This document shows, in pieces, positions 1,331-33,586 of a stretch of 64,000 bases of DNA. The position numbers and the translations under genes are program-made. The notes beneath the pieces are model-generated. The model was not told the DNA's origin, did no database searches, and worked only from the letters and a program-made list of their open reading frames with translations. The stretch spans positions 2,496,001 through 2,560,000 of the forward strand of contig CM000151.3 of assembly GCA_000004695.1 (NCBI GenBank), read 5' to 3'. The stretch comes from Dictyostelium discoideum. Its lineage: Eukaryota. Each line of letters opens with the position of its first letter. Positions within the stretch are counted from its first letter, which is position 1.

Positions 1331-2115
1331 TTTTTTTTTTGAATTGGATAACGCAATTTTGAATGTATTATTACTTTTGATTAAAACATCTTTTTTGTCC
1401 AAATTTTTTTCTAAATCTTTTTTTATATTTTTTTTTTTTTTTTTTTTTTTTCATTTATAGAGAGTACTGAGTGAATTATTGTATTTTTTGAGATGTTTGG
1501 GAAGTGCTATTGCGTGAAGAGGTGAGTTCCATTGTCTGTTAAATTGTAATAACTTTAGAGATTAATGAGTCTAATTTATTTTGTTCTTCTGGCCATTGCT
1601 TTGATTTGATTCTTAATGTTTTGTTTATAACCGCTTGTGTCCTATCCCATGCAACTCTTTGTGTTTTAATTAGTTCACGTATGACTTGTTGTCTATGAAT
1701 TACTATTTCTATTTCATCGTGGATGAGTTTGTTTCTTTTGTGCCAAATTTTTTCGAATATAATAGCTATTAAATTGGATATTAGTGCAATTTGTAGATGG
1801 TTTAAAATCTTAACATTCCAGGTGTGTCCACACTTGGTTAATGTGTAGTTGAAGATTTCTTGTGTGTTTTTGATGTGGGCTTTGCAGTTGAAGAATATAT
1901 GTTCTGAAGTCTCATCTTCCCCATACTGTTGGCATGGCATGTTGTATATTTTTGGTAGTGCTTTCTGTGTGTATCTCCATAATAGGTCTCTACCTTCCAT
2001 GTTTATTATTTTTTTAATTTCTTTAAATGGAAGGTGTTTGCTATTCATTTTGATCATTATTTCTTTTTGGCCAGGAGTTAATTTTGGATGGTGTTCATAT
2101 AAATAAAATAATTAA
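1331..2115 (-). mobile_element. 5'-truncated TRE5-type (TRE5-A-like) non-LTR retrotransposon copy: ORF2 C-terminal fragment, internal oligo(A), C-module and terminal oligo(A). Truncated end lies ~35-50 bp upstream of the tRNA-Glu gene
   Basis: Minus-strand ORF 1539-2057 has a Cys/His-rich tail similar to the ORF fragments at 19855-20152 and 17586-17909. Oligo(T) at 1430-1452 and 1331-1340 on the + strand equals oligo(A) of the element. 1341-1358 gaattggataacgcaatt is the reverse complement of the C-module terminus seen at 11421-11438 and 20168-20185. Position and orientation (5' end facing the tRNA, ~48 bp upstream) match established TRE5 behaviour. Confidence 0.6.
1539..2057 (-). pseudogene. 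TRE5 ORF2 C-terminal fragment (172 aa ORF, not a host gene)
   Basis: FEKIWHKRNKLIHDE...AWDRTQ aligns with ESIWYRRNQIKFND...AEWDRTR of the 19855 fragment. The open frame runs on to ~2115 with no ATG. Confidence 0.55.
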
Positions 2116-2148
2116 ATTTTCTTGTTTAATCAAATATTTCCATATAAT

Positions 2149-2220
2149 TCCTCATTGGTGTAGTCGGTAACACTCTAGTCTTTCACACTGGTACCTCGGG
2201 TTCGATTCCCGAATGGGGAG
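2149..2220 (+). tRNA. tRNA-Glu (anticodon UUC)
   Basis: Cloverleaf read by hand: acceptor TCCTCAT/ATGGGGA (one G-U), D-stem GTGT/ACAC, anticodon stem CTAGT/ACTGG with loop CTTTCAC (TTC), T-arm TCGGG-TTCGATT-CCCGA, discriminator G. Followed directly by a T8 pol III terminator. Confidence 0.8.
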
Positions 2221-2248
2221 TTTTTTTTACTAAAATTGATATTTTTAC

Positions 2249-2826: not shown

Positions 2827-3377
2827 ATGATAACCGACAATATTAACAATAATAGTAATAATAATAATAAAATTATAAAATTACCATTATATATTCAAAA
2901 ATATATAATTAAAATATTATGTAAACATATTGATAGAAATAATAAATTAATTGATTTCATTAAAATTGAAGATATTGATTATAGAGATAATGAAAAGTTA
3001 ATTAAAGAATTAATGATTTCATTGGCATTAGTGAATCATGATTGGTTTAAAACATTATCAAATAATTTAACAGTTTCAATTGATTTTAATTATAATTTAG
3101 ATTTTGAAAAAAATTTTAATAATAATAATAATAATAATAATACTACCACCGAAATAATGACAACAAAAATAAAAACATCAGAATCAAAAGATTTTATTGA
3201 AAGAATTGGAAAATTTTCAATTATAAAAAAAGAAAATGTAAAAACATTAAAATTACATTTTGATCATACAGATGAATTATTTTATTATAAAAATAAAAAA
3301 GATGGTATTAAAGTTTGTTTTGATTTTAATTTAGCAAATAAAGGTATTGAAAAATTAGTTAATTATCAACAACAACT

Positions 3378-3408
<31 letters not shown>

Positions 3409-3752
3409 AATAATAAAGAAAATATAATATTTAAAAAATTTATAGTTAGAAACATTAATTTAAAAAATAGTCAAATTTTAGATATTATAAATTCTCTTTA
3501 TCAAAGTAATAGTACAATGATTAATTTAAAATTATATAAAATTAATTTTAAAAGATTTCAAACCGTTGAATCAATTGAAGAATTTGGAAAAAGAGTTCAA
3601 AAAGTATTATCAATTTCTACTGAATATTGTCCATCAAAAGAAGTTTTATTTAAATCATTAGATATTTGGTCAAAAAATTTAGATTTTTTAGTTATTAATG
3701 GTGAGAGTGATATTGATGGTATACCAATAATTAAATTATTATCTTATTCAAT

Positions 3753-3795
<43 letters not shown>

Positions 3796-4566
3796 AAACA
3801 ACAACAACAACAAAAAGAAAAAGAAAAAGAAAAAGAAAAAGAAGAAGAAAAAAAAGAAGATAATTTAAAATATTATTTATCAAATTTATCACATTTTGAA
3901 AATTTATATTCAACATTTTCATTGGGTGATTTAAATTCATTATTTAAAACATTTAGAAATTTAAAATTATTTTCAATTAATTTTTGTTATGATAATTTAA
4001 TTTATTTATTATCAAATAATGTTGAAAGAAGAGAATTGGGTTTAGGATGTAGTTGTGATAGTTTTTTAGATGGTAGTGGTGGTAGTTTAGGTTTATTAGT
4101 AGAGAATAAAACTTTTTCAAATAACTGGCAAGTTTTTAAACAATTATTTAAAGAGAACAAAACAATGAAAAAAGTTACATTTAATCATTGGTGCCGAGTT
4201 AGAGGTGGAATTTTAAAATTCCCAAAAAATAAAAAAACTCCAACTTCATTTAATAAAGAGATTGGTTCATTAATTTCATCAAATAAATCAATTTCAACAT
4301 TTTTAATGTGGAGTTCAACAACTACTCAAGTGATTGAAGAAATACTCTTGAGTGGTAATAAAACGATTACACATTTTGAAACAGGTGCAATTAATAGTAC
4401 TTGTGATTTTGATAAATATTTATTGGATTTAAATCGTTTAATTAATGAATATCAACATATTAAAAGTTTTGATTTCATTAAAAATACTTATATTTTTTCA
4501 AAAAATTCTTATCAAAATGAAAAATTAAAAGTTTTTAAAAGAGAAATTAAATTAAATCAAAATTAA
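2827..4566 (+). CDS. Hypothetical Dictyostelium-specific protein (579 aa) with poly-N/poly-Q tracts. Upstream member of a tandem paralog pair. N-terminal LPLYIQKYIIKIL motif is F-box-like
   Basis: Intact ATG-to-stop ORF. N-terminal ~100 aa and C-terminal ~190 aa (KTMKKVTFNHWCRVRGGILKFPK...LMWSSTTTQVIEEIL...YLLDLNRLI) are strongly conserved with ORF 6953-9253. Confidence 0.7.
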
Positions 4567-6869: not shown

Positions 6870-6952
6870 TTTTATACCAAAAAAAAAAAAAAAAACCAAA
6901 AACTGGTATTATATATTTACACAACACAACACACTCACTCACAAATATTATA

Positions 6953-9253
<2,301 letters not shown>

Positions 9254-9333: not shown

Positions 9334-10025
9334 AATTTGTTGTTTGGTTTTATATTTTTACTTAAAGTATAAATTTAAAATATATTATATATTAAATATT
9401 TAATTTAATTTTTATTATTAATATTTTCTTTTTTTTTTATATTTAATATGATATATTTATATATAAATTTATTTTTATTATTAATGTAAACTATATAATA
9501 TATATATTAACATTGGTTTAGAGGTAATCCATCTTCAATTGAGATTGATTATGGAAAAAGGTTAATTTACAAAATAAAATTGAACAATTTGATGATTTAA
9601 AAAGGTAATTTGTGTATCACGAATAAACTATTTGGGAGGGCTAAGCTAGGAAAGAAGTAATTTAAGGCAAAATGAATTTTATTGCTTGTAGTTATTATTT
9701 TTATTTTTTTTTTATTTAATATCGATATATTAAGATTTATTTGTTATGTTGGAGCGTCAGCACATTAAACTCAAAATAATAACTTTATAAAGAATATACA
9801 AAATAAACTAATTTACAAATGAAAAATGTAAATGAATAAATATAATAAATGAAAATGAATTTAATAATATAAATAATTATTGTAACAAAGAACTACTGCA
9901 TACCTTACAAATTGTAATGAATCTCGTATTCTAACTTTATGGAATACTTATATTATTTTGGATATATCAATAAACGATGTGTGACCCTTGAATAATTAAT
10001 AATAATTTATATAATCTATAGATAT

Positions 10026-10160
10026 CACATCTTAATGAAACGTGGTTATTCCAGGTTAATGAGTGGATAGCAATTGAACGAGCATCAATAGGGGTATCAA
10101 AGAAATGATTAACAACAGTGATACGATCAGTTACACCAGTAATAGCAGCACCATGACCTT
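10026..10160 (-). pseudogene. Discoidin I pseudogene fragment (~135 bp internal piece of the H-type lectin-domain coding region)
   Basis: ~90% identical at nucleotide level to 14292-14428 and 15777-15913 of the two intact discoidin I genes. Homology stops abruptly on both sides. Confidence 0.75.
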
Positions 10161-10169
10161 GTGAATATT

Positions 10170-10335
10170 GTTAATAATGACAGTTGACAATCCTCCCATG
10201 CCAATATTGTTAATAATGTCAGCTAAACTACCCCTTGCGAACAATGTTAATAATGTCAGCTGACCAACCTCCCTTGCGAACAATGTTAATAATGTCAGCT
10301 GACCAACCTCCCATGCAAATATCGCAAATTATGTC
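10170..10335 (+). repeat. ~40-bp tandem repeat array, ~4.5 copies (GAACAATGTTAATAATGTCAGCTGACCAACCTCCCWTGC), immediately after the discoidin pseudogene fragment
   Basis: Direct repeats visible in the sequence. Confidence 0.65.
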
Positions 10336-10872
10336 AGTTGACCCAACCACATTGATTACTATTCATTCAGTGTAAAGTGGATGCAAGGACATGCACAACT
10401 AATACTAACATACAGTAGTATCACACAATATAAAGTTTAACCAGATTCTTTAGATTAGCTACTCAAAAATGAGCACATATAATGTGTATGATTTTTATTA
10501 TTATTATTTATTTGATATTAATTAATTATTTACTTGATCTAGATGTAGATATTTTAGTAATAATAGGTGTTAATTCGGATTTTTTTTAAATTTGTATTTC
10601 TGCATGCAATATTATGTGTGAGTTTCAAAAAAAAAAAAAAAAATAAAAAAAAAAAAAAAATAAATAAAATTTTAAAAACCTTAATAATATAATGTTAATA
10701 TATAAAAAAATGAAATTATAGATCAAATAAATAAATGTTATTCGTAAATAGTAAAAACTCAAATAAATTCCTACCAATTTAATGTGGTTGACCTCATTCT
10801 TTTTTTAATTTTATTTAACCTTATTAGGTAAATTTCAGGGAAATCTAGATATTTAAATGGATAAAAAGAATG

Positions 10873-10951
10873 TGAGAGATGCGGGGTTCGAACCCGCGAC
10901 CCCGGAGGATAGAGCCTAAATCTATTGTCTTAACCACTCGACCAATCTCCC
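10873..10951 (-). tRNA. tRNA-Leu (anticodon UAG), long variable arm
   Basis: Reverse complement folds: acceptor GGGAGAT/ATCTCTC (one G-U), D-arm GTC-GAGTGGTTAA-GAC, anticodon arm ATAGA-TTTAGGC-TCTAT (TAG), 11-nt variable arm, T-arm GCGGG-TTCGAAC-CCCGC, discriminator A. T5 terminator just downstream on its own strand. Confidence 0.75.
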
Positions 10952-10997
10952 GTGCATATGTTTAAAATTTTTTCACCAAACTCCTGTGCATATGTTT

Positions 10998-11451
10998 AAA
11001 AAAAAAAAACCTGGAACCCAAGTTAATCAGAAAATTTCCAGATTTTTAACTTTTTAAAGAAAAATAAAAAAAATAGAAAGAAAATAAAATGAAAATCACA
11101 AACAACACCACAAATATTAAGCAACACAAATGCCTACAAAAAATAAGCGAAATTGTGGATAAAACTCAATTAAAAAAAAAACAATTCAAATACGTCATAA
11201 ACATCAATCACGAACCAGACGATAAAATAAAAAAAGATTTAGAAAAAAGTTTGGACAAAAAAGATGTTTTAATCAAAAGTAATAATACAATTCAAAATTC
11301 GAAACAAAAAAAAAAAAAAAAAAAAAAAGTAAACCAACCCCTCTTTTAGAGACCCTGTAAAAAAAAAAAAAAATAAAATAAAATGAGATCTAGCATCTCA
11401 AGGAGAAGCAAATAATAATTGCGTTATCCAATTCAAAAAAAAAAAAAAAAA
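10998..11451 (+). mobile_element. Severely 5'-truncated TRE5-A-like element (C-module region plus oligo(A) tails) inserted ~47 bp upstream of tRNA-Leu, 5' end facing the tRNA, flanked by a TSD CTGTGCATATGTTTAAAA
   Basis: TSD copies at 10982-10997 and 11456-11473, with a third copy of the same motif at 10952-10968. 11320-11450 is the reverse complement of 20168-20278. 11200-11290 matches the reverse complement of 1345-1430. ORF-track entry 11089-11349 lies inside this non-coding module. Confidence 0.65.
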
Positions 11452-12589
11452 AAACTGTGCATATGTTTAAAATTTATCATGTAATGTTTATAATTTATCA
11501 TGTGATGCTTATAATTTTTTTGCTTTTAAAATCAATTATTCAAAATATTTTCTATGACCTTGTATTATATTTGGTGTTAATGCTGAATTATCTAGTGATT
11601 GGTATAAATCAAGAATTTCATTCTTTAATAATAATGTGTACATATAATCACCAACTCCAAACTCTATAAACAGAAGAACAATACTACATGTACATGTTCA
11701 GGTATAAACACATTAGCCGTCTCAACTGATCCACCATGGCCTCAAATAACTTCGGTTTACATTTTTGATTCACTGTTTACTTTATTAAGTCATGAATTTC
11801 TTTATTTTTTACTTTTTTTTTCTAAAAAATATAGTCATTTATTAAGTTAATTTGAGCAGTATAGTGATAAATTGAAAAATAAACTCTGTAGTTTTTCTTA
11901 AGTGTCCAAAACATACATAAAATAGTTTTTATTGAAGTGGTTATTTAGGTGCTTCACTTGATGAAGGTAATCAAACTGCATAGAATGATTTGATGGTTAA
12001 ATGTTCAGATATGGCTTGTCGTGAAGCACTTAAAGAAGTTTCAAGAATGAAAATAATCATAATATTAAAAATTATAATATAAAATAAATTTCTCGTGTGT
12101 CGAGTATTTTCTTATGTTAATTTTATTTGCACAAAATTAATAAATAAAATAAAAGTAGTGTATATGAAAATAAGAAAAAAAAAAGTTTTAGAGCAAAAAA
12201 AGAAAAAGAAAAAAACAAATAATTCCAAAATTAGAGTACTTTTTAAAAATTATTTAATTATTTATTTATTTATTTATTTATTAATTAATTTATTTTTTAA
12301 TTTATTGATTTATTGATTTATTAATTTATTATGATTATTTACATTTTTGTAACTTTAATAGCTTAACGTCATGTCATTTCTAAATATTTAATCTTTTCTA
12401 ATTCTTTGCAGCTTGTTTACCTTTACCAGGTGAAGCTCCGAAATTACTAACAGAAGCATCGTAAAAAAAGCCACAGCTTTACCAATCCATTCTTTACTAA
12501 GTAATTGAGGGAATACACCAAAAAAAGAATGATTGACTTATACCACTATAAAGTAATGGTCACCAGTAATCGAATTGGTCTATCTTTAA

Positions 12590-12720
12590 ATATAAAACTT
12601 ACACTCTTTTTTTATTTGAACTATTGTCTGTATCTTTAGTTTTTCTTTTACCTGTTGTTGTTGTTGTTGTTGTATCATCTTGTTCCTATCTCCTGATGAT
12701 GGTTCATATTAATACTTAGT
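12590..12720 (-). pseudogene. Pseudo-copy of part of exon 1 of the BCNT-like gene (matches 57020-57130), embedded in a block of gene-fragment debris (11700-12900)
   Basis: TACACTCTTTTTTTATTTGAAC.ATT.TCTG.ATCTTTAGTTTTTCTTTTAC.TGTTGTTG...TCTCCTGATGATGGTTCATA shared between 12590-12720 and 57020-57130 with a few substitutions and indels. Confidence 0.55.
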
Positions 12721-13804
12721 TTGATTCTCTGCTATTTGTCCTTTACCATTAACTTTTGCTGGTTTACCCAATGTTGCAAATCCCAATATCGATAATGATC
12801 ACCTAAAAATAAAACTTCATTTGCTAAACCTGCTATATCAATTATTGCCGCTGTACCTAAATTACCAACAATGATACCCCTAAAAATATTAAAAACCAAA
12901 CTCCATTTGCTAAACCTGCTTTATAGATTAACTCAAAAAATTTATTTATTTTTTTATTTGTTTATTTATTTATTTATTTTTTTATTAACCAAAAAAAAAA
13001 GTAAAAAAAAAAAAGAAAAAAAAAAAAAAAGAAAAAAATAAATAAAAAAATGAAATTAAAAATTAGTAAGGGATGTAAAAATTTCAGTGGTGAAAAGTAA
13101 TTTTATGAGGTGCTGGTGTATGTTCGTTGCCTTTTTTTTTATTTTTTTTTACTTTTATTTTTTTATTTCATATAAAAATTAGTTTTGAAAAAAAAAAAGA
13201 AAAAAATAAATTAAAAAAATAATTATTTTATTTCTGTGTGATTATTTTTTTTTTTTTCTTTGTAGAGGGTACAATTTCAAAAATAAATATATTGTTTTTC
13301 TGAGTCCATAAATTTCCTATTACACTAATATTTTTATTTTTTTTTTATCATTATTGTTTTATTTTTTTTATTTTAAGAGTGACCCATTATATTGATTCCT
13401 TTTGAAAACATTTTAATTTATTTATTTATTTGAATTTAAAAAAAAAATTTAAAATATATAGATATTTGGTTAAGAGAATTAAAAAAAAAAAAATTGAAAA
13501 AATTAAAAAAAGTGTTTGGGAATTAAAAAAAAAAATAAAATGGAAAATGAAAAAAAATGAAAAAACGAAAATTAATTTTAATTATTTATTGCTGTAAATA
13601 AAAAATTTATGGAAAAAATAAATATTATAATTCACCTTAAAAAAAAAAAAAAAAAAATTTATGACATTAGTTTTTATGGGTGTATCATGTTTTTTTTTTT
13701 TATTTTTTTTGAATACTGTTAGAATAATTATATAATCTGGTCTATTGATCAAAAAATAAAATAAAAAAAGATAATTATTTTTGATTAATATAAATATGTT
13801 TAAC

Positions 13805-13861
<57 letters not shown>

Positions 13862-13979
13862 AAAGCTTTTTGTTTTATAATAAAAAAAAATAAAATTAAA
13901 TTTTATTTGTTTTTATTTTTTTTTAAAATTGATTAATAATTAAATTACAATTTTAATAATTTTTTAAAAAATTATTTGT

Positions 13980-14741
13980 TTATTCTAAAGCGGTGGCAAT
14001 GTAATCAGCTCTTAATGAATAGACTTTGTTTTCATTCCAAGTGTAGAAAACACAATCAAAACCTTTGGTGGTAATGTTTCTTGGTTGAACACCAATACGA
14101 GTTTGATTGGTAGCATCAGTACAATCGATTTGATCAAAGTTGAGGGCAACCTTTGGGAGAGTAGCAAATTCAAATTGGAATTTAACTGGGACAACAACTT
14201 CACGTTTACCTGAACCGGTATTTAAGGCACAGTTATCGCCAGTGTAAATATCTGCACCAACTTGAGTGACTGAGCTTTGTACTGGTTGAGTGTAGAATTC
14301 ACATCTTAATGAAATGTGGTTATTCCAGGTTAATGGGTGGATAGCAATTGAACGAGCTCTAATTGGAGTATCAAAGAAATGATTAACAACAGTGTTACGA
14401 TCAGTTACACCAGTAATAGCAGCACCATTACGATATTCAGACCAGGTAACATTATCTAATGAATAACGGATTTTGTATGATGTAACCCATTGATCATGAT
14501 CACCACGACCTTGGAGAGCAACACACATAAAAGTACGTGGAACTTCACAACCAGCAACAATGTATTGGTTAGTATCTACGATTGATGAACACCAAGCTTC
14601 TGAACCATCAATAGTATTGGTACCTTTGTTTTTATAGTTTAAAGCAGCATTAAATTGAGTGTGGACACCATTGTAATTGGTTGAGGTTCTTAAATGACAT
14701 TGAGCATTTCCGAGAAGTGTAACTAAACCTTGGGTAGACAT
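13980..14741 (-). CDS. Discoidin I (253 aa; N-terminal discoidin/F5-8 type C domain plus C-terminal H-type lectin domain), intact, intronless
   Basis: Protein [29 protein letters not shown]...[10 protein letters not shown] recognised as discoidin I from memory. Complete ATG..TAA. Confidence 0.9.
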
Positions 14742-15081
14742 TTTAATTGTGTGTTGAATTTAAAAAAAGATAATTTGTATAAATGAAATTTTAATTTTTC
14801 AGTTTAATGATTTTAAAATGAAAATCATATTTTCTTTTTATAGTTTTTTTTTTTTTTTTTTTCCAATTAAAATTAAAGATTTAATTTATTTTTTTTTTAA
14901 TTTTTTAATTTTGTAAAATGACCAACTATTTTTATTGAAAAAATTAATGGGTATAAATTTTTTAAAATTTAATAAAAATCACCCCACTTTTCAGATTTTT
15001 CCTAGCTGTCGCAATTGGTGTGAAAAAAAAAATAAAATTAAAATGATTGTAAATTTTTTTTGTAATGGTTTGATTATTAAA

Positions 15082-15119
<38 letters not shown>

Positions 15120-15464
15120 TAAATTTGTAAATTTGGAATTTTTATGATTGAAAATAATTATATCTTTTTTTTTTTTATGATTTTTTTTTTTTTATTGATT
15201 TTTTTTATTTTTTTTTTATTGTTTTTTCAATGAAAAAAAAAGTTTTTATTCCTTAAAGATTGACGATAATTAATTTAGATTGGATATTATAAAAATACAG
15301 TTTTTTTTTTTTTTTTTTTATCATTTTTTATTTCAAATTTAATAATAATAGTTTAGAAATGGAAAAAATATAATAAACAAAATCTTGAATTTGGATTTTT
15401 TTTTTTTTTTTTTATTAAATTTGATTAAAAATTAAATTACAATTTTAATAATAAGATTAAAAAT

Positions 15465-16226
15465 TTATTCTAAAGCAGTAGCAATGTAATCAGCTCTTAA
15501 TGAATAGACTTTGTTAGCATTCCAAGTGTAGAAAACACAATCGAAACCTTTGGTGGTAATGTTTCTTGGTTGAACACCAATACGAGTTTGATTGGTAGCA
15601 TCAGTACAATCGATTTGATCAAAGTTGAGGGCAACCTTTGGGAGAGTAGCAAATTCAAATTGGAATTTAACTGGGACAACAACTTCACGTTTACCTGAAC
15701 CGGTATTTAAGGCACAGTTATCGCCAGTGTAAATATCTGCACCAACTTGAGTGACTGAGCTTTGTACTGGTTGAGTGTAGAATTCACATCTTAATGAAAT
15801 GTGGTTATTCCAGGTTAATGGGTGGATAGCAATTGAACGAGCTCTAATTGGAGTATCAAAGAAATGATTAACAACAGTGTTACGATCAGTTACACCAGTA
15901 ATAGCAGCACCATTACGATATTCAGACCAGGTAACATTATCTAATGAATAACGGATTTTGTATGATGTAACCCATTGATCATGATCACCACGACCTTGGA
16001 GAGCAACACACATAAAAGTACGTGGAACTTCACAACCAGCAACAATGTATTGGTTGGTATCTACGATTGATGAACACCAAGCTTCTGAACCATCAATAGT
16101 ATTGGTACCTTTGTTTTTATAGTTTAAAACAGCATTAAATTGAGTGTGGACATCATTGTAATTGGTTGAGGTTCTTAAATGACATTGAGCATTTGAGATA
16201 AGTTGAACTAAACCTTGGGTAGACAT
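15465..16226 (-). CDS. Discoidin I, second tandem copy (253 aa, 7 amino-acid differences from the first copy), intact
   Basis: Near-identical ORF 1485 bp upstream of the first. The 5' and 3' flanks are also conserved, so the duplication unit is ~1.5 kb. Confidence 0.9.
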
Positions 16227-16459
16227 TTTATAAATTTTATTATTTAAAAAGATAATTTGTATGAAATTTTAATTTTTCAATTTAATGATTTTAATTAAAA
16301 ATTTTTTTTCTTTTTATACTTTTTCTTTTTTTAATTGGTTTTTTTTTTTTTTTTTTTTATTTTTTAAATTTAATTATTTTTAATTTTTTTTGTAAATTGA
16401 CAAAAAAGTAATCATTGTTTAAATTTATTTTTGCAAAGATTTGATTTTTTAAAAACTAA

Positions 16460-16491
<32 letters not shown>

Positions 16492-16589
16492 TATTGGGGG
16501 CAAGTGAAATTTCCCAATTTTAAAATAATCTCAAACTTTTAAAAGAAAACAAAAAAAAAAAAAAAATCTTTTTACTTTTTGGGGTTTAA

Positions 16590-16622
<33 letters not shown>

Positions 16623-16857
16623 AATCAATTTTTTTTTTTTTGTTTGGATTTTATTTTTATAATTTAATAATTATTTAATAAAATATTTTCTTTTTTATAA
16701 TTTAATTTTTATGTTTAGTCTTTTAATTTATATATTTCTTTTTTTATTTATCTTTTTAAAAGCTATAATTATTATTGAGGAATCTAACTAAAGAAAATTA
16801 TATTTTTTTAATTTTATATTAAAAAATTAAAAATATTTTAATACAGTTGATTAAAAT

Positions 16858-16896
<39 letters not shown>

Positions 16897-17136
16897 TGAT
16901 TAATTAGTTTATCTAAAATATCAATTTTTTTTTAATATTTTTGAATTTTAAAATTTAAATTTATTATTCTTTTTTCAATTTAAATAATCAAATTAAAAAT
17001 TTTAATTGTAAAATATTGTATTAATATTATTGGTTTTTTTTTTTTTTTTTTTTGATCAATGTTATTAAACCATGTTCATGAATAATAAAAATTAATTTCA
17101 ATAAATTCTTAAAACCGTTTGGATAATTATAAGTTC

Positions 17137-17190
17137 TCGCTAGTTCGATTCTGAATAAATGAAATAGGAATCGAACTAGCGACATATTCT
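17137..17190. promoter_or_regulatory. Perfect 15-bp inverted repeat (TCGCTAGTTCGATTC / GAATCGAACTAGCGA, 16-bp spacer). Each arm contains an external B-box-like AGTTCGATTC, located 20-70 bp downstream of tRNAi-Met copy A
   Basis: Only the tRNA-proximal arm is shared with copy B (20709-20725). The distal arm is an extra inverted copy. Confidence 0.5.
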
Positions 17191-17580
17191 ATATAATTTT
17201 AAAATTTAGCTTCTCTAGGTTTCGATCCTAGGACCTCGAGGTTATGGGCCTCGCACTCTACCCCTGAGTTAAGAAGCTGTCGATTCAAGCTAACGAATCT
17301 TATGATTTTGTTGTAATAAAGTTACTCTATAAAATTAATACATATTAAATATGCATATTACATTACTAATTTTAGTTGACACACATTTAAATAATATAAT
17401 AATAATAATAATAATAATACTGTCAACTCATTATAAATAATATAAATACTAAAGAATAATTTTATAAACAATATTGAATATTAAATATAAACTAATATTA
17501 AATAAAGATAACAAAGTATTATTCAATTATATAATTATTAATTATATATATTTATAAAGCTAACAAGCTTTATTACATTT
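17163..17580 (-). repeat. Arm A of an inverted segmental duplication (~420 bp): tRNAi-Met gene plus 302 bp upstream flank and ~45 bp downstream flank
   Basis: Reverse complement of 20315-20730 with only a few mismatches. Confidence 0.85.
17207..17278 (-). tRNA. Initiator tRNA-Met (anticodon CAU), copy A
   Basis: Identical to copy B, see 20614-20685. Confidence 0.85.
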
Positions 17581-17831
17581 GTGTAATGAACGTCGTATTC
17601 CAATTTCTATTAAATAACAGCAGCCTGGGAAAAACAAAAAACAACATATACAAACTAATCAGACAAGAAAAAAAAGCAACCAACAACGAACAAACAAAAA
17701 AATTCAAAAACATCATCTCCCTACAACTCGAAAGATTTAGCAAACACTGGAACTCACCACTACACACAGTAGCACTACCATCAAACCTCAACAAATATAT
17801 TACGTCACTAAACACACTCTACACCCCCCAA

Positions 17832-17884
<53 letters not shown>

Positions 17885-17992
17885 ATACAACCTTAAAAGG
17901 CACCTGTAATATCTAATAATAAAATTAATAAAATGAGTTATATCTCAAGAAGAAGCAACTAAAAATTGCGTTATTCCATTCAAAAAAAAAAA
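17581..17992 (+). mobile_element. 5'-truncated TRE5-type element (a divergent subfamily relative to the 19855 copy): ORF2 C-terminal fragment, oligo(A), C-module-like tail (AAAATGAGTTATATCTCAAGAAGAAGCAACTAAAAATTGCGTTATTCCATTC) and oligo(A). Truncated 5' end abuts the duplicated tRNA flank exactly at its breakpoint
   Basis: ORF 17586-17909 ends LERFSKHWNSPLHT, matching RLEKFSHNWKSKLMT of the 19855 fragment. The tail is ~75% identical to 11385-11440. Confidence 0.6.
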
Positions 17993-18009
17993 TTCCTATT
18001 AAATACTTT

Positions 18010-19283: not shown

Positions 19284-19382
<99 letters not shown>

Positions 19383-19854: not shown

Positions 19855-20152
19855 TTGGAAAAAAAGACAGCCATTATGGAATCGATATGGTACAGAAGAA
19901 ACCAAATAAAATTCAACGATAACACTACAATAATAACAGAGAACCAAATAATTCATAAAATCAAAAAAGCGAGAGATGCCGAATGGGATAGAACAAGAAA
20001 GATAGTAGAAAAGCAACTACGTCAAGAACTAAGATGCACTGATAACCGAGAGTCAATCAATAGGACCGCATCAATAAAAAGAAGACTCGAAAAATTCAGT
20101 CACAACTGGAAATCGAAACTCATGACCATAAACATCCCGGAACACTTCAGAC
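19855..20152 (+). mobile_element. TRE5-A-like ORF2 3'-terminal fragment. The upstream boundary is uncertain and may extend to ~19700. Interrupted at 20152 by a nested insertion
   Basis: Translation ESIWYRRNQIKFND...AEWDRTRKIVEKQL...RLEKFSHNWKS is TRE5 ORF2-like. The track start is a TTG, not a real start codon. Confidence 0.55.
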
Positions 20153-20280
20153 TTTTTTTTTTTTTTTGAATTGGATAACGCAATTATTTGCTTCTCCTTG
20201 AGATGCTAGATCTCATTTTATTTTATTTTTTTTTTACAGGGTCCCTAAAAGAGGGGTTGGTTTACCTTTTTTTTTTTTTA
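20153..20280 (-). mobile_element. Nested, minus-oriented insertion of a minimal TRE5-A 3' end (oligo(A), ~105-bp C-module, oligo(A)) flanked by a 13-bp TSD GAACACTTCAGAC
   Basis: TSD copies at 20140-20152 and 20281-20293. Inserted segment is the reverse complement of 11318-11451. Confidence 0.65.
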
Positions 20281-20613
20281 GAACACTTCAGACAACATTT
20301 AGTTATTTGATATGAAATGTAATAAAGCTTGTTAGCTTTATAAATATATAATTAATAATTATATAATTGAATAATACTTTGTTATCTTTATTTAATATTA
20401 GTTTATATTTATAATATTCAATATTGTTTATAAAATTATTCTTTAGTATTTATATTATTTATAATGAGTTGACAGTATTATTATTATTATTATTATATTA
20501 TTTAAATGTGTGTCAACTATAATTAGTAATGTAATATGCATATTTAATATCTATTAATTTTATAGAGTAACTTTATTACAGAAAAATCATAAGATTCGTT
20601 AGCTTGAATCGAC

Positions 20614-20685
20614 AGCTTCTTAACTCAGGGGTAGAGTGCGAGGCCCATAACCTCGAGGTCCTAGGATCGAAACCTAGAGAAGCTA
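20614..20685 (+). tRNA. Initiator tRNA-Met (anticodon CAU), copy B
   Basis: AGCTTCTTAACTCAGGGGTAGAGTGCGAGGCCCATAACCTCGAGGTCCTAGGATCGAAACCTAGAGAAGCTA. Perfect 7-bp acceptor stem. Anticodon loop CCCATAA has C33. T-loop GATCGAAAC has A54 and A60. These are eukaryotic initiator-specific features. Similar to human tRNAi-Met (GGCCCATAACC, AGGTC, GGATCGAAACC blocks). Confidence 0.85.
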
Positions 20686-20714
20686 AATTTTAAAATTATA
20701 CAGAATATGTCGCT

Positions 20715-20725
20715 AGTTCGATTCC
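20715..20725 (+). promoter_or_regulatory. External B-box (AGTTCGATTCC) 30-40 bp downstream of tRNAi-Met copy B
   Basis: Matches the B-box consensus GGTTCGANTCC at the position established for Dictyostelium ex-B boxes. Confidence 0.55.
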
Positions 20726-21023
20726 TATTTTAAAGAATTAAATTCCATATTGATTTAATTTTAAAAAAATTAAAAGCCTACAGTTGATCAAACGGATACT
20801 AGATACAGAAAAACATATCCATCAATCTAACATCAACTACATTCAATCTATCTACTCTACACACTAATTCCTTCAATCCTTGGATTGGGAATAAGAATAG
20901 ATCTGAATAAACGATAAAGAAAAAAAAAAATAAAAATAAAAATCAAAAATATTTTTATATAAACACATAATTAAAAAAAAAAAATAATAAAAATAATCTA
21001 AAAAAAAAAAAAAAAAAAAAAAA

Positions 21024-21800
21024 ATGAATTTTTTCGATAAACTTAAAGGTGAACTCAACTTAGGCGAAGAAGAGTTAAATAAAAAAACTATTCAAATAAG
21101 GTTATTCTACCCACATACCTTGGAATTAAATAGTAATTCAACAAAATTAATAGATAATTTCATAGTTAATGGTACTCTTAACATTGTCAGAAGACAAAAA
21201 GGTATAACAGTATTTGGTAGAATACTAAAAGAAAAATTCACATTATTACACGAGTGTTACAGCACTTTCAAGTATGAAGATTTCCCACTGCAAAAATTCA
21301 TACTTTACACCCCAGGATATCACTATGTCCACTTTTACACATTTACAAAAAACATAATAAAAAAAATAAACAATCAAATGGTAAAAGAAAACTGGGGATT
21401 GGAGCCATTACTAATAGATGAATGCAACATAGTAATGCTACCAGATGTGATTAGATATTCATGCATTCTATTATTTAACAAAGAAGATGATATCTCAATC
21501 ATTAAAACAAACATTGATGCTATAAAAGGTAGTAAGCATCCAATAAGAGCCTTCATCTCTGAATATAACAATAAAGAAATAAGAGATGTTAGAAAAAAAA
21601 AAAACACAAGTAATAAAAATCAACAACCAACAACTACAAATACAACTAAACCAATACCATCAACTCCACCAACAACTAATGCATCAACAACCACACCAAT
21701 AACAACCACACCAATAACAACCACACAAACAACAACCACACCAACAACAATCACACATCAATTACCAACAAGCAATACAACAATCAACAACCTAAACAAA

Positions 21801-21835
<35 letters not shown>

Positions 21836-21905
21836 AAAACCTATCAATAAAATTACTACAAGCAATGGTACCAAGTTTCCAATTGCCAGTAGTATTAGAA
21901 AATAA
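21024..21905 (+). CDS. TRE3 ORF1 (293 aa, Thr-rich C-terminus)
   Basis: First ORF of the element. Confidence 0.7.
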
Positions 21906-24640
21906 TGGAACAATTAAAATTATTACTATGGAACTGCAGAGGTAATCAATCAACCAACGCTAAGAATAAAACAGAAGAAACGATAAAAAGAATTGGCACT
22001 CAATTAACACTCCTAACTGAAACTAATTTCAATGGATTCAACCACCACAAAACAATGTTCAACTTTGAAAGAATAGATCATGGTTCAGGTAAAGGAACTG
22101 GCATAGCAATAGAAAATAGAGATACAAGAAAAGGCCACATATCAATAAACTTCAAAGACGATGATGGTAGAATACTATCAATTAAATACAATTCCTTTAA
22201 TTCTATCAACATATTATTGATCAATGCTCCAGCGACTATATCTGAAAGAAACACCTTCATAATCAACTCAAAATCACTGTTTAAAAAATATAATTCAATC
22301 AACCATCAAATAATAGCAGGCGACTTCAATAACAACCACGATTGCAACAGCTTCTTCGGTACTGAATTACGTAAAATAATAGACCAAGACATGCTACTAG
22401 ATACTGGTATTGAAGAAAACACTCCAACATTTCCAAGATCAATGAAGAGACTAGATAGAATCTACTGTCATCCAACACTACTAAACCAAAATTCAAAACT
22501 GGTAGTCCACAACACAGTATTCAACAAATCAGATCACTTTCCCATCACAATCACAATACAAACCAACAGAGAAACAACAACAACAACAACAACAACCAAA
22601 CTAGAAAGACTCCCTTGGACATTATGTAAAGAAATTCTCAACAACAAACATATACATGATGGGTTATCAGAATTAATCAGTAAGAACAAAGATAAGATCA
22701 AATCAGTGGAGGAATGGACGAAATTTAAAAATAATGTCATCAGAGATTATTTAAAAAAAGAACAAAACAAAATAAAGAAAGAAAAGAACAAAAGAAAATA
22801 CGTAATCCACAAATTACTTGGAAATAGTGATATCATTCCAAAGATGAGAAAAGAACTCAATGAAGAAATAAGTAGAATATTAGAAGAAGAAAGAAAGGTA
22901 AAAGCATGGGATATAAAATTAAAACTCCACCTGCATCAAGAAACACCAAGCAAATACCTCACAAGTATCCTTAAATCCAGAGCCAAAGATAAATCAATAT
23001 TCCAAATAAAAGATAAAGATAATAAGACCATATCAGATAAAGAGAACATAGCAAAAAGATTTGTTGAATTCTATCAAGATCAATATGAAGAGAAAGAAGA
23101 TAACGAAGAAACCCACAAGAAGTTATTAGAAAAATGGGAAGTAGACGTTGATTTAATCAAGAAACTCGAGATAGACAGACCGATAAGAATACATGAAGTG
23201 ACCAAAGCAATCAAAACTTCAAGTATCCACAAATCTCCAGGTTTAGACGGTATCAATGCACTATTCTACAAGTACCACATCAACTCAATAGCAAGAATAT
23301 TGACTATAGCTTTCAACGACCTCCTCACAAATAAGAAAGAAATCCCCACAAAATTCAAAGAAGGAGTAATAACAACAATATTCAAAAAAGGAGATGAACT
23401 AAACATTTCAAATAGAAGACCAATCACCCTTCTCAATACAGATTACAAAATTTTAAGCAAAATTCTCAACAGTAGATTATTAGATATCACCAGTAAAATT
23501 ATCAACAAATTTCAAAACGGCTTTGTTCCAAACAGGTTCATCCAAGACAATATTCAGATCATGAAGGAAGTAATAGAAATAAGTAACAAAAGAAAGAACA
23601 ATACACTCATTACCTTTTACGATTTTAACAAAGCATTCGATTCAATCAGCCACAAGAGTATCACAAGAACATTAGAGCATATTGGTATCCCCCCAAAATT
23701 CACAGCGATCCTACTAAACCTACTCAAAGATACTAAAAACAAAATAAAGATCAACGACTTTTTAGTCAATGGAATAACAATCAGAACAGGAACAAAACAA
23801 GGAGACCCAATATCACCAACAATCTTTGCTCTAGTTTTAGAACCACTTCTAATAGATATCATCAATGATAATACAATCAAAGGCTTCACTCTACCAAATT
23901 CCAAATCATTAAAACTCACTGCATTTGCTGACGACATAGCAACCTTTACAAACTCCACAGAAGAACTAATGAAAATTAATACTAAAATCCAAAAGTACTG
24001 CTCAGCAACGTCATCATCGTTAAACAAAGAGAAAACAGTAATGATAGCAATAGGAGATAAACCACACGATCTACCATTCCAAGAGAGTACAGTCCCAGAA
24101 AGATATCTTGGCCTCAATTTCACCAAAACAGGTTTAAATTCAAAATACAACACTTTAATCCAAGAAATGAAAAACAATCTAATCAAATGGAAATCACAAG
24201 CAATAACGATGAAGGCAAAGATGACAATTCTCAAAACATACGTTCTATCCAAATTAACATACCATCAATACATGGATAATCTAAATGAAGAACAAATTGA
24301 GGAAATCAATAACATGACCAGATGGTTCTTATTCTCCTCAGTTAAGAATACATATACAGAAGAGAGAAAATACAAAACTATGATGAAAATAGACAGAGCA
24401 TATGCAGATTGGAAAGAAGGAGGCATAAAATTATGGGATATAGAACTAAGACATATAGCATTCAAAATCTGGTACATGAACAGGCTACTCCATAACAACT
24501 ACAACAACAACAACAATACCTTACAAGAATGGTACATGGAGCAATTAAGTAGAAAAAAGCCCACACTTCAACCCTCAACGATATGTGCAGACACTGGGGT
24601 GTATTCAGAGTCAAATTTTACCAAAACCATCCAAAGATAA
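21905..24640 (+). CDS. TRE3 ORF2: apurinic/apyrimidinic-type endonuclease plus reverse transcriptase (911 aa to the first stop)
   Basis: EEP/APE-like N-terminus, RT motifs 1-7 including FADD at the YXDD position. Confidence 0.8.
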   Translation: MEQLKLLLWNCRGNQSTNAKNKTEETIKRIGTQLTLLTETNFNGFNHHKTMFNFERIDHGSGKGTGIAIENRDTRKGHISINFKDDDGRILSIKYNSFNSINILLINAPATISERNTFIINSKSLFKKYNSINHQIIAGDFNNNHDCNSFFGTELRKIIDQDMLLDTGIEENTPTFPRSMKRLDRIYCHPTLLNQNSKLVVHNTVFNKSDHFPITITIQTNRETTTTTTTTKLERLPWTLCKEILNNKHIHDGLSELISKNKDKIKSVEEWTKFKNNVIRDYLKKEQNKIKKEKNKRKYVIHKLLGNSDIIPKMRKELNEEISRILEEERKVKAWDIKLKLHLHQETPSKYLTSILKSRAKDKSIFQIKDKDNKTISDKENIAKRFVEFYQDQYEEKEDNEETHKKLLEKWEVDVDLIKKLEIDRPIRIHEVTKAIKTSSIHKSPGLDGINALFYKYHINSIARILTIAFNDLLTNKKEIPTKFKEGVITTIFKKGDELNISNRRPITLLNTDYKILSKILNSRLLDITSKIINKFQNGFVPNRFIQDNIQIMKEVIEISNKRKNNTLITFYDFNKAFDSISHKSITRTLEHIGIPPKFTAILLNLLKDTKNKIKINDFLVNGITIRTGTKQGDPISPTIFALVLEPLLIDIINDNTIKGFTLPNSKSLKLTAFADDIATFTNSTEELMKINTKIQKYCSATSSSLNKEKTVMIAIGDKPHDLPFQESTVPERYLGLNFTKTGLNSKYNTLIQEMKNNLIKWKSQAITMKAKMTILKTYVLSKLTYHQYMDNLNEEQIEEINNMTRWFLFSSVKNTYTEERKYKTMMKIDRAYADWKEGGIKLWDIELRHIAFKIWYMNRLLHNNYNNNNNTLQEWYMEQLSRKKPTLQPSTICADTGVYSESNFTKTIQR

Positions 24641-25350
24641 ATGAACTTCCAGACTGTATAAGAAACGACAATGATGAACCACTAAAACTGAAAGAAATTT
24701 ACGAACTCATGATCAAAGACAGACACCCAACACCAAGAAGAACAGAATGGCAGAAGTTATGGGCGGTGAGATACAACACAGCAATACCCAAAGTATTCAT
24801 AAACATCAACAGCATTTCTCACCAAAAAGGTAGAAACACCCTCTTCAGATTCTTCTCAAGATCACTTCCAGGTATCAACCACGAAAGAGACACCAGATGC
24901 AAGATCTGTGGCCACCTATTCAGAGACCCTTATTCTCACCTCTTCACTCTATGCCAAGATATCCTAGATATTGAAAAAACCATCATATCAACAGTTAACA
25001 AATTATCATTCATCAAAATCCAAAGATGGTCAATGGATACCTTAGACATATCAAAATACAACAGAACTGAGAGAATCTTCCCCAATCTCATAGGAATAAT
25101 AGCACACCAATTATGGAAGATAATCTGTCACAAATTGTTCAACACTGATGAAAGCAAACCAGAGCCAAAATTCGAGCAAAAGGTCATAGAAACAGAATTA
25201 CTAAATCTCATCGAAACTGAAAAATTCATCACACTAAAGAAAATCAAACACGACGAAGCAATACTAAAAAACACCAATCAAGATCTTCACAAATACAAAT
25301 TCAACAAAGCCTGGCAAACCCCAGCAGCTCCGAACCCTCTTCCAATTTAA
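24583..25350 (+). CDS. TRE3 ORF2 C-terminal Cys/His (zinc-finger-like) domain in a different frame from 21905-24640. Apparent frameshift within 24583-24640, so this copy may be defective or the shift is programmed or a sequencing error
   Basis: CKICGH...H...C motif typical of non-LTR ORF2 tails. Overlaps the end of the RT frame. Confidence 0.5.
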   Translation: MCRHWGVFRVKFYQNHPKINELPDCIRNDNDEPLKLKEIYELMIKDRHPTPRRTEWQKLWAVRYNTAIPKVFININSISHQKGRNTLFRFFSRSLPGINHERDTRCKICGHLFRDPYSHLFTLCQDILDIEKTIISTVNKLSFIKIQRWSMDTLDISKYNRTERIFPNLIGIIAHQLWKIICHKLFNTDESKPEPKFEQKVIETELLNLIETEKFITLKKIKHDEAILKNTNQDLHKYKFNKAWQTPAAPNPLPI

Positions 25351-25355
25351 GTAGT

Positions 25356-25430
<75 letters not shown>

Positions 25431-26302
25431 GTTTAAAAAATTTAATACAATTGAATAATAAAAATAAAACCGTTTAACAAACACCGCCGAAAAGACACAA
25501 GGACATTCCTTGAAGGTCTGATCACAGGTAAAAAAAAAAAAAAAAAAATATTGATTTAATTTTAAAACTGAAAAAAAAAATAACAATAAAAATAATAGTA
25601 TCTTTTTTTCAAAATGAATTTGAGGGATGTATCCTTAGCTCTTATTGTCTCTTCTCTTCTTTTGGATTTATTGATTGCCTAGATTCTTGGTCTTTGAATT
25701 CTATGTCTAATAGAGCTACAGAATTTGAGAAATTCGGTATGTGTAGGATTATAATCCTATAAATTACTGAATATTTGATTTAATAGTTAAAAAGTGATTA
25801 ATCAATATTAAAAAAAAAAAAATTATAATAAATGAAACATTTGAACATGTTACAATTGTTCCACCTTTTTTTCAAACTATTTAACAAAATTTACTTTTTT
25901 AATTTAATAAAATTGGTTTTGTTTATATTAAAAATAATTTTCCATCGATTTTTATTAAAAAAAAAAAAAAAAAAGAAAATCAAATTTTAAAACTAAAAAA
26001 AAAATATTATTTTTTAATTAAAATTTATTTTTAATATTGGTAAAGTCACCAGGGACTTGTTTTAAAATAATTAAAAATTTAGGATAATTTAAATAATAAT
26101 ATTTTAAAATTTTAATTTTAATATATTAATTTTTTTTTTTTAAAATTTTCTCTAGATATTTTTTTTTTTTTTTTTTTTTTTGATATTTTGTGATATTTTT
26201 AGATATTTTAGAATTTTTTTTTTGAAAAAAAAAAAAAAAAAAAAAACTATTTAAATCACACCCAAATTTTAATTATTTTTATTTTTATACATATTTTAAA
26301 AA

Positions 26303-27214
26303 ATGAATAAAATGAATAATATTTTTTTAATAATATCAAGTATTATTTTATCTATTGTTATTTTCGTCAGTGGTGAATGTGCCATTGATTTCTCATCAGA
26401 GATTTCAGTTGGAATTTCAGATTCTCAATGGTCATGTTTAGCTAGTAATAATCAAAGAGTTATAATTCAAGTGTGGTCAGGAGGTGGTCAATATAATTCA
26501 AATATTTCATCTGTTGTATCGGCAGCAGAACAAGCTGGTTTCGATAATATTGATCTTTATGCATTTTTATGTAGTGAATGTGATGGTAATTATCCAGCAT
26601 CAAGTGCAATTCAAAGTTTAGTTTCTAGTTTAAAATCCGATGGTATCAATTTCAATATGTTATGGATTGATGTTGAACAATGTGATGGTTGTTGGGGAGC
26701 AGAGAGTGATAATGCCGATTATGTTCAAGAAGCTGTTGAAACTGCACAAGGTCTTGGTGTTCTAGTAGGTGTATACAGTAGTGAAGGAGAATGGCCACAA
26801 ACTGTTGGTAATTTATCAACTCTAAGTCAATATCCACTTTGGTATGCTCATTATGATGATAATCCATCTTTTTCCGATACCGCTTTTTATGAATTTGGTG
26901 GTTGGACTTCACCAGCAATGAAACAATATATTGGCAATACAAATCAATGTGGTGTTAGTGTTGATTTAGATTTTTATGGATCTGGTAGTGGTTGTTCAAC
27001 ATCCTCTGGTAGTGCATCTGGTAGTGCTTCTGGTAGTGCATCTGGTAGTGCATCTGGTAGTAATAGTGGAAGCAGTAATAGTGGAAGTAGTAATAGTGGA
27101 AGTAGTAATAGTGGAAGTAATAGTGGAAGTAGTAATAGTGGAAGTGGTAATAGTGGAAGTAGTAATAGTGGAAGTGCAAGTGGAAGTGGTACAGGAAGTG
27201 GATCATCCATTTAA
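26303..27214 (+). CDS. Secreted GH25-family (Chalaropsis-type) lysozyme/muramidase-like protein with Ser/Gly-rich C-terminal tail (303 aa)
   Basis: Signal peptide. Collinear blocks with GH25 enzymes: ISDSQWSC / IDVSHWQG, LWIDVEQC / LDIEHN, VGVYSSEGEW / VVIYTTASWW, LWYAHYD / FWVAHWG, VSVDLDFYGS / VSGDVDRNKFNG. Confidence 0.65.
   Translation: MNKMNNIFLIISSIILSIVIFVSGECAIDFSSEISVGISDSQWSCLASNNQRVIIQVWSGGGQYNSNISSVVSAAEQAGFDNIDLYAFLCSECDGNYPASSAIQSLVSSLKSDGINFNMLWIDVEQCDGCWGAESDNADYVQEAVETAQGLGVLVGVYSSEGEWPQTVGNLSTLSQYPLWYAHYDDNPSFSDTAFYEFGGWTSPAMKQYIGNTNQCGVSVDLDFYGSGSGCSTSSGSASGSASGSASGSASGSNSGSSNSGSSNSGSSNSGSNSGSSNSGSGNSGSSNSGSASGSGTGSGSSI

Positions 27215-27858: not shown

Positions 27859-29657
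<1,799 letters not shown>

Positions 29658-32698: not shown

Positions 32699-32738
<40 letters not shown>

Positions 32739-33216: not shown

Positions 33217-33279
<63 letters not shown>

Positions 33280-33509: not shown

Positions 33510-33586
<77 letters not shown>

Follow-up and report, generated by a model that had tools for sequence, protein, structure and literature searches.

A discoidin I relic in a lineage-specific island beside the dscC–dscD gene pair of Dictyostelium discoideum

We analysed a stretch of 64,000 nucleotides from Dictyostelium discoideum (GenBank assembly GCA_000004695.1, contig CM000151.3, positions 2,496,001 to 2,560,000 of the forward strand), referred to below in its whole length as the window. 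It carries the tandem discoidin I genes dscC and dscD and, downstream of them, a short piece of discoidin I coding sequence. The explanation that fits best, to which we give a probability of about 0.8, is that the window holds the dscC–dscD locus together with a relic fragment of discoidin I, that the relic sits in a small island most likely left as the scar of one rearrangement or repair event, and that a truncated TRE5-A retrotransposon and other elements targeted to transfer RNA (tRNA) genes have settled around it. The locus is already known and is textbook material, and all of its features belong to well-described categories; the discoidin I family was one of the earliest developmentally regulated gene families to be cloned in Dictyostelium, and part of the discovery of tRNA-targeted retroelements was made in its surroundings. 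The present analysis adds a clean map of the region that gives exact boundaries for the elements, the target-site duplications (TSDs) and the true extent of the gene duplication, and a small example of concerted evolution that is limited to the core of the genes. From newer assemblies it further appears that the fragment is a young scar specific to one lineage, and at least one natural isolate has the discoidin pair inverted.

The window was compared with orthologous loci fetched from other assemblies. L001 is a third-party D. discoideum assembly (GCA_054883475.1), annotated and not derived from AX4, which matches window positions 3917–24757 at 99.5% identity with the same layout. L002, L004 and L005 are other assemblies of the D. 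discoideum complex, L004 being the isolate assembly GCA_054859385.1; L003 is D. citrinum, and L006 is a locus used for comparison with TRE5. By the four D. discoideum-complex genomes we mean the window, L002, L004 and L005, with D. citrinum left out. The tools used were self-blastn, Tandem Repeats Finder (TRF), ARAGORN, Rfam, Pfam, tblastn, matching to PDB structures and exact-sequence look-up of proteins.

Identity and concerted evolution of the gene pair

The two genes, the unit in which they are duplicated and the core that they share are as follows (ORF, open reading frame; CDS, coding sequence).

13980–14741, minus strand: dscC (discoidin I, C/B chain), an intact ORF of 253 residues without an intron
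15465–16226, minus strand: dscD (discoidin I, D chain), an intact ORF of 253 residues, the upstream member of the tandem pair
13876–14912, minus strand: duplicated unit, copy 1, the dscC CDS with its alignable flanks (self-blastn against 15369–16371)
15369–16371, minus strand: duplicated unit, copy 2, the dscD CDS with its alignable flanks (self-blastn and flank identities)
14059–14570, minus strand: identical core in dscC (CDS 172–683), 512 bp, 100% identical to dscD at 15544–16055

The dscC translation is an exact match to DIS1B_DICDI (‘discoidin I, C chain and B chain’; EAL70633.1 and EAL70750.1, AX4) and the dscD translation is an exact match to DIS1D_DICDI (‘discoidin I, D chain’; EAL70634.1 and EAL70751.1, AX4); the window is therefore the dscC–dscD locus. 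In Pfam, both ORFs contain F5_F8_type_C (PF00754, 8e-27) and H_lectin (PF09458, 4e-20), and both align over residues 1–253 to discoidin-1 subunit A (PDB 2w94, 566 bits). These matches bear out the first-pass annotation, made from the letters of the sequence, in its claim of a discoidin I locus with two intact tandem genes of 253 residues, and by their sequences both genes look functional. They are no different from the members of the D. discoideum discoidin I family listed at dictyBase (dscC-1/-2 and dscD-1/-2). That family comprises three genes, DscA, DscC and DscD (bioRxiv 10.64898/2026.06.18.733164); the window does not contain dscA, as would be expected if that gene is unlinked at such a scale.

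The genes lie head to tail in the order dscD, dscC, with a spacer of 723 bp and a gene-to-gene period of 1485 bp. Their proteins are identical at 247 of 253 residues, which makes six amino acid differences where seven had been counted before, and their coding sequences differ at 13 of 762 nucleotides. A duplication unit of about 1.5 kb with conserved flanks had also been described. The flanks can indeed be aligned on both sides, but the homology extends over only about 1.0 kb, in which the CDS is joined by roughly 105 bp on its 3′ side and roughly 145–170 bp on its 5′ side (91.5% identity over 1040 columns by self-blastn), and the figure of 1485 bp is the gene period. Identity in the flanks is 76–86% in the first 50–200 bp and further out drops to about 60%, which is background.

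The differences between the two coding sequences are not spread evenly. All 13 fall within the first 171 or the last 79 nucleotides, and CDS 172–683 has none. In the four D. discoideum-complex genomes, paralogues inside one genome differ at 13–20 sites overall and at 0–5 sites in the core, as against 32–48 sites overall and 15–28 in the core between lineages. At the N-terminus, on the other hand, the signatures VQLLS of the upstream and VTLLG of the downstream gene are conserved by position in all four, so the tandem duplication must be older than these lineages; D. citrinum (L003) has a single discoidin gene at the orthologous locus. This pattern shows concerted evolution, in which the core has been homogenised repeatedly while the gene ends escaped, the ends and flanks keeping their orthologous signatures. 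Gene conversion between the two copies probably made the 512-bp tract identical.

The discoidin fragment, its island and their origin

Beyond the 3′ end of dscC, on the far side of a tRNA-Leu gene, lie the fragment, a tandem array that abuts it, and the island that carries both.

10872–10951, minus strand: tRNA-Leu(UAG), from ARAGORN and Rfam (58 bits), conserved in L002 and L004
10019–10157, minus strand: discoidin I pseudogene fragment, codons ~104–150, the C-terminal third of the discoidin domain (self-blastn)
10157–10347, no strand assigned: 39-bp tandem array, about 4.7 in-register copies, abutting the fragment
9844–10430, no strand assigned: lineage-specific, GC-richer island that contains fragment and array and is private to the window and L001

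The fragment has the orientation of dscC and dscD and lies 3.8 kb beyond the dscC 3′ end. It matches both genes at 92.1% over 139 bp without a gap (self-blastn, E = 5e-53), covers only residues 104–150 of a protein whose discoidin domain spans residues 37–149, and ends abruptly, identity falling to noise within a few bases on both sides. The earlier call of a pseudogene fragment of 135 bp at 10026–10160 therefore stands as to its presence, its abrupt ends and its lack of function, but not as to its extent. Through the fragment the discoidin frame is open, with no internal stop over 46 codons; a stop 5 codons upstream and another 20 codons downstream bound it to 66 codons. That frame contains no ATG, and there is no longer frame in 9850–10500. 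A search around the fragment for splice sites gave none that convince, with no GTAAGT-type donor downstream, and the DNA upstream of it is the array, at 33–37% GC unlike an AT-rich Dictyostelium intron. The annotation of L001 likewise calls no gene at the fragment, between dscC and the gene for a 766-residue protein. The first-pass annotation had reasoned that a longer, spliced ORF would make this an exon of a real lectin gene; as neither a longer ORF nor convincing splice sites were found, the pseudogene call is supported. It does not resemble a processed pseudogene, being an internal piece of CDS that lacks poly(A) and is not flanked by direct repeats.

The substitutions in the fragment fit this call. 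It differs from the window genes at 11 sites, 10 of them private, and 7 of these 10 private changes are at codon positions 1 or 2 (N105H, N116I, R128D, P136S, I143V and F149I, with R128D made up of three adjacent nucleotide changes). Over the same stretch, the intact genes of the four D. discoideum-complex genomes have 10 variable sites, 9 at the third codon position and 1 at positions 1 or 2; the contrast of 7/10 with 1/10 gives a Fisher p of 0.02, on small numbers. Because its private changes are mostly at codon positions 1 and 2, the fragment is best described as a decaying, unconstrained copy, that is, a non-coding relic that appears to have decayed free of codon constraint.

The same sites carry information about the age of the copy. 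The fragment diverges from the window genes at 11 sites, from the L002, L004 and L005 genes at 14–16 and from D. citrinum at 31. It shares the states of the window lineage at CDS 324 and 447, and at CDS 375 it still has the ancestral C, replaced by T in both window genes, which suggests that it was copied after the window lineage split off and before the change at 375 had reached both genes. In agreement with an origin after the split, it is absent from the orthologous position in L002 and L004, and neither of these loci contains discoidin-like sequence outside the two genes. These data point to a dscC- or dscD-type gene of the window's own lineage as the source of the fragment and indicate that the copy is recent.

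The array begins where the fragment stops: its first in-register copy starts exactly at the end of the discoidin homology. TRF gives a period of 39, 4.7 copies and 79% matches for 10163–10342, so that the 4.5 copies of an unrelated 40-bp repeat described before are real and unrelated to discoidin but need their period and copy number corrected. Against the discoidin locus the array shows no similarity above shuffled controls, and elsewhere in the window or in the fetched loci its sequence was found only in the near-identical L001. A discoidin origin for the array or the island flanks was rejected, local alignments scoring no better than shuffles, and inverted matches between the array unit and the fragment (72–79% over 19–25 nucleotides) are at the level of chance in such AT-rich DNA. 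The island as a whole measures about 590 bp, with the fragment and the array set between a left flank of 175 bp and a right flank of about 88 bp, and has 28–37% GC amid DNA of 6–17% GC. Its non-discoidin parts match nothing in the window or the fetched loci, L001 excepted, and its borders show no poly(A), TSD or terminal inverted repeat, only low-complexity A/T runs. Homology with L004 ends at about 9843 and picks up again at 10776, and homology with L002 covers about 10430–10951, to continue only from 9333; among the isolates, the interval downstream of tRNA-Leu thus exists in three different states. In L004 the fragment and array of the window are replaced by a different sequence of about 645 bp, within which a 138-residue ORF was called (L004 3011–3427; MSSYADIVKEDSAQ...); its first 98 residues have no counterpart in the window. 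That this ORF is a TRE3 ORF1 was considered and rejected, as it has no similarity to the ORF1 of the TRE3 in the window or to anything else there.

Most likely, a single event of rearrangement or repair in the interval downstream of tRNA-Leu would have laid down the island. In that case the genes 4 kb away would have served as the template from which the discoidin piece was copied in as filler, and the 39-bp array may have arisen or expanded in place by slippage. Gene-fragment pseudogenes, or templated filler at the junctions of double-strand-break repair, offer a close parallel, with an abrupt internal piece of a gene, no poly(A) or TSD, an unrelated patch, an adjoining short array and neutral decay; the fragment departs from it in that its junctions lack clear microhomology, which makes the mechanism a probable one. 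Several points weigh against this account. Templated filler is deduced from anatomy alone, and no source was found for the other ~450 bp, the array and flanks. The polarity of the event depends on the derived states that the fragment shares, at two sites only, and because L002 and L004 each have a deletion or replacement of their own here, the absence of the island from them gives no strict polarity. A divergence of 8% is high for a copy made after the split and needs either an origin near the split or error-prone copying. For the rest of the locus, gene conversion between dscC and dscD is deduced from the pattern of identity, and the assignment of the neighbouring insertion to TRE5-A, described below, is made on architecture and position. 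A stronger form of the account, in which the island is a natural and datable multi-piece templated insertion at a repaired chromosome break, made in the recent NC4/AX4 lineage in a fragile zone next to a tRNA gene, we consider very unlikely. A variant in which discoidin-like RNA from the island may feed the RNA interference (RNAi) machinery and modulate dscA, dscC and dscD is less likely than a plain templated insertion.

The alternatives differ in where they place the source. The discoidin family grows by tandem duplication, and a fragment in the orientation of the genes, only 3.8 kb downstream, might be the last remnant of a third tandem gene downstream of dscC, eroded by deletions on both sides. 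We think this unlikely, as no discoidin coding or flank homology is left on either side of the fragment and tRNA-Leu, which is conserved in all lineages, sits between the genes and the fragment. In addition, the fetched loci hold exactly two genes in L002, L004 and L005 and one in L003, with no third copy or relic, and the window-lineage states in the fragment date it after the tandem duplication that is common to all lineages. Delivery by a mobile element would instead bring the island in from outside, through TRE3-type transduction or template switching downstream of tRNA-Leu or through capture by a DNA transposon. TRE3 integrates 40–150 bp downstream of tRNA genes and shares their orientation (PMC5911963), and the non-homologous interval does start within this landing zone, about 96 bp past the tRNA-Leu 3′ end; moreover, L004 has a different, ORF-bearing insert at the same place, and the GC content of the island is element-like. 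Yet the borders of the island lack poly(A), TSD and terminal inverted repeat, the island is unlike both TRE5-A and the TRE3 of the window, and L002 shares 10430–10776, which means that the island itself begins about 440 bp from the tRNA gene. Furthermore, D. discoideum is reported to have no processed pseudogenes, a consequence of the specificity of the TRE5-A proteins for their own RNA (PMC3159450). Mobile delivery is accordingly quite improbable in our view.

A functional role for the fragment, as an exon of an unannotated and possibly chimeric lectin gene or as the source of a regulatory RNA acting on the discoidin genes, would draw on its open frame of 46 codons and on its 92% identity to highly expressed genes, which suffices for cross-talk at the level of RNA. 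In addition, the C module of the nearby TRE5-A is known to work as an antisense promoter, which here would be directed at the fragment (PMC3159450). Such transcription, however, would yield the sense strand of the fragment and not the antisense strand. The exon is opposed by the stops 5 codons up and 20 codons down, by the lack of an ATG, a GTAAGT-type donor and an AT-rich intron context, by substitutions at codon positions 1 and 2 that include R128D and P136S, and by the absence of a gene model from the annotated L001, and we regard either role as extremely improbable.

A full-text literature search, whose scope did not take in the classical papers, returned nothing relevant on a discoidin pseudogene or on Tdd-2. 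In 1980–84 the Firtel and Williams laboratories reportedly wrote of ‘three complete’ genes for discoidin I, with linkage between two of them, and the Firtel laboratory is said to have described Tdd-2 and Tdd-3 elements and strain-specific rearrangements around the linked pair. From the wording ‘three complete’, an incomplete discoidin copy was presumably seen already at that time.

TRE5-A at tRNA-Leu and rearrangement between isolates

Just upstream of tRNA-Leu lies a short retrotransposon copy between two exact direct repeats.

11002–11454, plus strand: 5′-truncated TRE5-A, consisting of B module, C module and A20 tail, 453 bp, with the ORF1 ATG at 11089
10984–11001, no strand assigned: left copy of the TSD, CTGTGCATATGTTTAAAA, an exact 18-bp repeat
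11455–11472, no strand assigned: right copy of the TSD, CTGTGCATATGTTTAAAA, an exact 18-bp repeat

A tRNA-Leu gene with a TRE5 insertion had been reported, and both are here: the gene is tRNA-Leu(UAG) at 10872–10951 and the insertion can be sharpened to a TRE5-A that is truncated at its 5′ end and retains B and C modules. From the tRNA 5′ end (10951) to the first base of TRE5-A (11002) there are 50 bp, and the two are head to head, TRE5-A on the plus and the tRNA gene on the minus strand. The position and orientation agree with the published rule that TRE5-A integrates 44–54 bp upstream of tRNA genes in the opposite orientation (PMC5911963). In L004 the target site is present once, unduplicated, and TRE5-A is absent. 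TRE5-A has the layout AB-ORF1-ORF2-BC, in which a 290-bp B module carries the start of ORF1 and is duplicated in the 3′ untranslated region (UTR), followed there by a C module of 134–137 bp; TRE5-B and TRE5-C have no 3′ B module (PMC3159450). The full element at L006 encodes a 444-residue ORF1 and a 1047-residue ORF2 with a reverse transcriptase (RT) domain, followed by a short ORF. Window 10998–11445 is 97.4% identical to the 3′ B and C region of this element (6909–7358), and window 10998–11300 is 99% identical to its 5′ B module, around the ORF1 start.

The window copy is thus like TRE5-A (also called DRE) in its distance from the tRNA gene, its opposite orientation, its TSD and oligo(A), and its B module followed by a C module of about 135–145 bp. 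It differs in that only the 3′ UTR (453 bp) is left. Having neither the ORF1/ORF2 body nor the A-module promoter, it is immobile. It would have integrated by target-primed reverse transcription. An 86-residue ORF at 11089–11349 was rejected as a gene, as what it represents is the beginning of ORF1 within the B module of TRE5-A: its first 67 residues are the N-terminus of the 444-residue ORF1 of L006. This 86-codon ORF has near-identical copies dispersed over several chromosomes of D. discoideum, where the annotation lists them as short hypothetical proteins. At window 10940–11007 there is also a 34-bp tandem duplication of the tRNA-Leu 5′ end and its upstream flank, which is found in L004 as well and, since L004 lacks TRE5-A, is older than the insertion. 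A third copy of GTGCATATGTTTAAAA, at 10952, is no second TSD but belongs to this older duplication.

Direct comparison of the isolates bears out the earlier description of the neighbourhood as rearrangement-prone and element-rich, which draws support from the TRE3, variable between lineages, an inversion in L004, the three states of the fragment interval and further TRE5 remnants. The TRE3 site is empty in L002, L004 and L005. In L004, the segment 7372–15170, which corresponds to window ~11531–17285, is a block with dscC, dscD and one tRNA-Met gene that is inverted, with the flanks conserved on both sides; both breakpoints lie within tRNA/TRE-rich intervals. Recombination between two TRE5 copies was rejected as the cause, as there is only one C module at the L004 junctions. 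Ectopic recombination among dispersed repeats and duplicated tRNA genes could give rise to the structural differences between isolates. Downstream of dscC, L004 (12175–13169) and L005 (14044–15478) have a predicted gene that is absent from the corresponding part of the window, 11473–13979. This part keeps only short conserved patches, such as 12608–12986 (90% identical to L004), and holds no ORF of more than about 105 codons, the longest being low-complexity and A/T-rich.

In AX4, dscA, dscC, dscD and three genes at 48.7–55 kb of the window each have two accessions or locus tags (for example DDB_G0273113 and DDB_G0273851, or DDB_G0273273 and DDB_G0273843), and in the non-AX4 assembly GCA_054883475.1 each protein that was checked is found in a single place. 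AX3 and AX4 carry an inverted duplication of about 750 kb on chromosome 2, at about 2.25–3 Mb (PMC2643946). Accessions that are doubled in AX4 and single in the non-AX4 assembly place the locus inside this duplication, and they thereby give indirect support to a suggestion raised by the first-pass annotation. The design of discoidin I knock-out or RNAi experiments should mind the identical core of 512 bp, a decoy in the form of the fragment with its 92% identity, and the presence of the whole locus twice in AX3/AX4.

Other tRNA genes and retroelements of the neighbourhood

An Rfam scan of the window returned four tRNAs and nothing else, and retroelement debris lies at all four of these genes. 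Besides tRNA-Leu and its TRE5-A, the tRNA genes and elements are as follows.

1331–2099, minus strand: 5′-truncated TRE5-A remnant (ORF2 C-terminus, partial B module, C-module tail), upstream of tRNA-Glu
2148–2221, plus strand: tRNA-Glu(UUC)
17207–17278, minus strand: tRNA-Met(CAU), inside the left arm of an inverted repeat (17162–17580)
17619–17995, plus strand: diverged TRE5-like 3′ end (ORF2 tail, internal A-run, C-module-like sequence, poly(A)), upstream of the minus-strand tRNA-Met
20153–20280, minus strand: TRE5 insertion consisting of a C module only, with a 13-bp TSD GAACACTTCAGAC at 20140 and 20281
20614–20685, plus strand: tRNA-Met(CAU), inside the right arm of the inverted repeat (20315–20730)
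20767–25547, plus strand: full-length TRE3-type retrotransposon without long terminal repeats (non-LTR), 4.8 kb, with ORF1, an ORF2 with apurinic/apyrimidinic endonuclease (APE) and RT, and poly(A)

The TRE3-type element lies 81 bp downstream of the plus-strand tRNA-Met gene and in the same orientation, just past the external-B-box-like sequence GTTCGATTCC. It is bounded by a 20-bp TSD, ATATTGATTTAATTTTAAAA, at 20747 and 25548, and contains the Pfam domains RVT_1 and Exo_endo_phos. Its distance and orientation, APE and RT, poly(A) and TSD are those expected of TRE3, and it resembles the known TRE3 (Tdd-3-type) in its downstream, same-orientation placement, two ORFs, APE with RT, poly(A) and TSD. 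The frame of its ORF2 changes at about 24.6 kb, which may be a normal frameshift or damage.

The two tRNA-Met genes sit in the arms of an inverted repeat of 420 bp, 17162–17580 and 20315–20730, that are 97% identical. L002 and L005 have paired inverted tRNA-Met genes too, which makes this an old arrangement. Enclosed by the arms are about 2.7 kb of debris from retroelements, together with a possible small ORF (about 18.9–19.26 kb) and an (ATT)33 microsatellite at 19284–19382. Within this debris, the TRE5-like 3′ end at 17619–17995 is 43% identical by tblastn to the C-terminus of the TRE5-A ORF2 and 75% identical in its C module, and the insertion that consists of a C module only lies within a different, diverged non-LTR remnant (19873–20157, plus strand), in whose ORF2 tail it is nested. 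At the other end of the region, the 172-residue ORF at 1539–2057 is the ORF2 tail of the TRE5-A remnant upstream of tRNA-Glu.

Two diverged tandem paralogues at 2827–4566 and 6953–9253 encode Asn/Gln-rich proteins of 579 and 766 residues with no Pfam domain, and their DNA is 75–88% identical in parts. To the right of the TRE3-type element are genes for a GH25 lysozyme-like protein (26303–27214) and a TraB-family protein (27859–29280), followed further right by genes for a tyrosyl-DNA phosphodiesterase (32420–34624) and a protein with Dicty_CTDC repeats (35335–36417).

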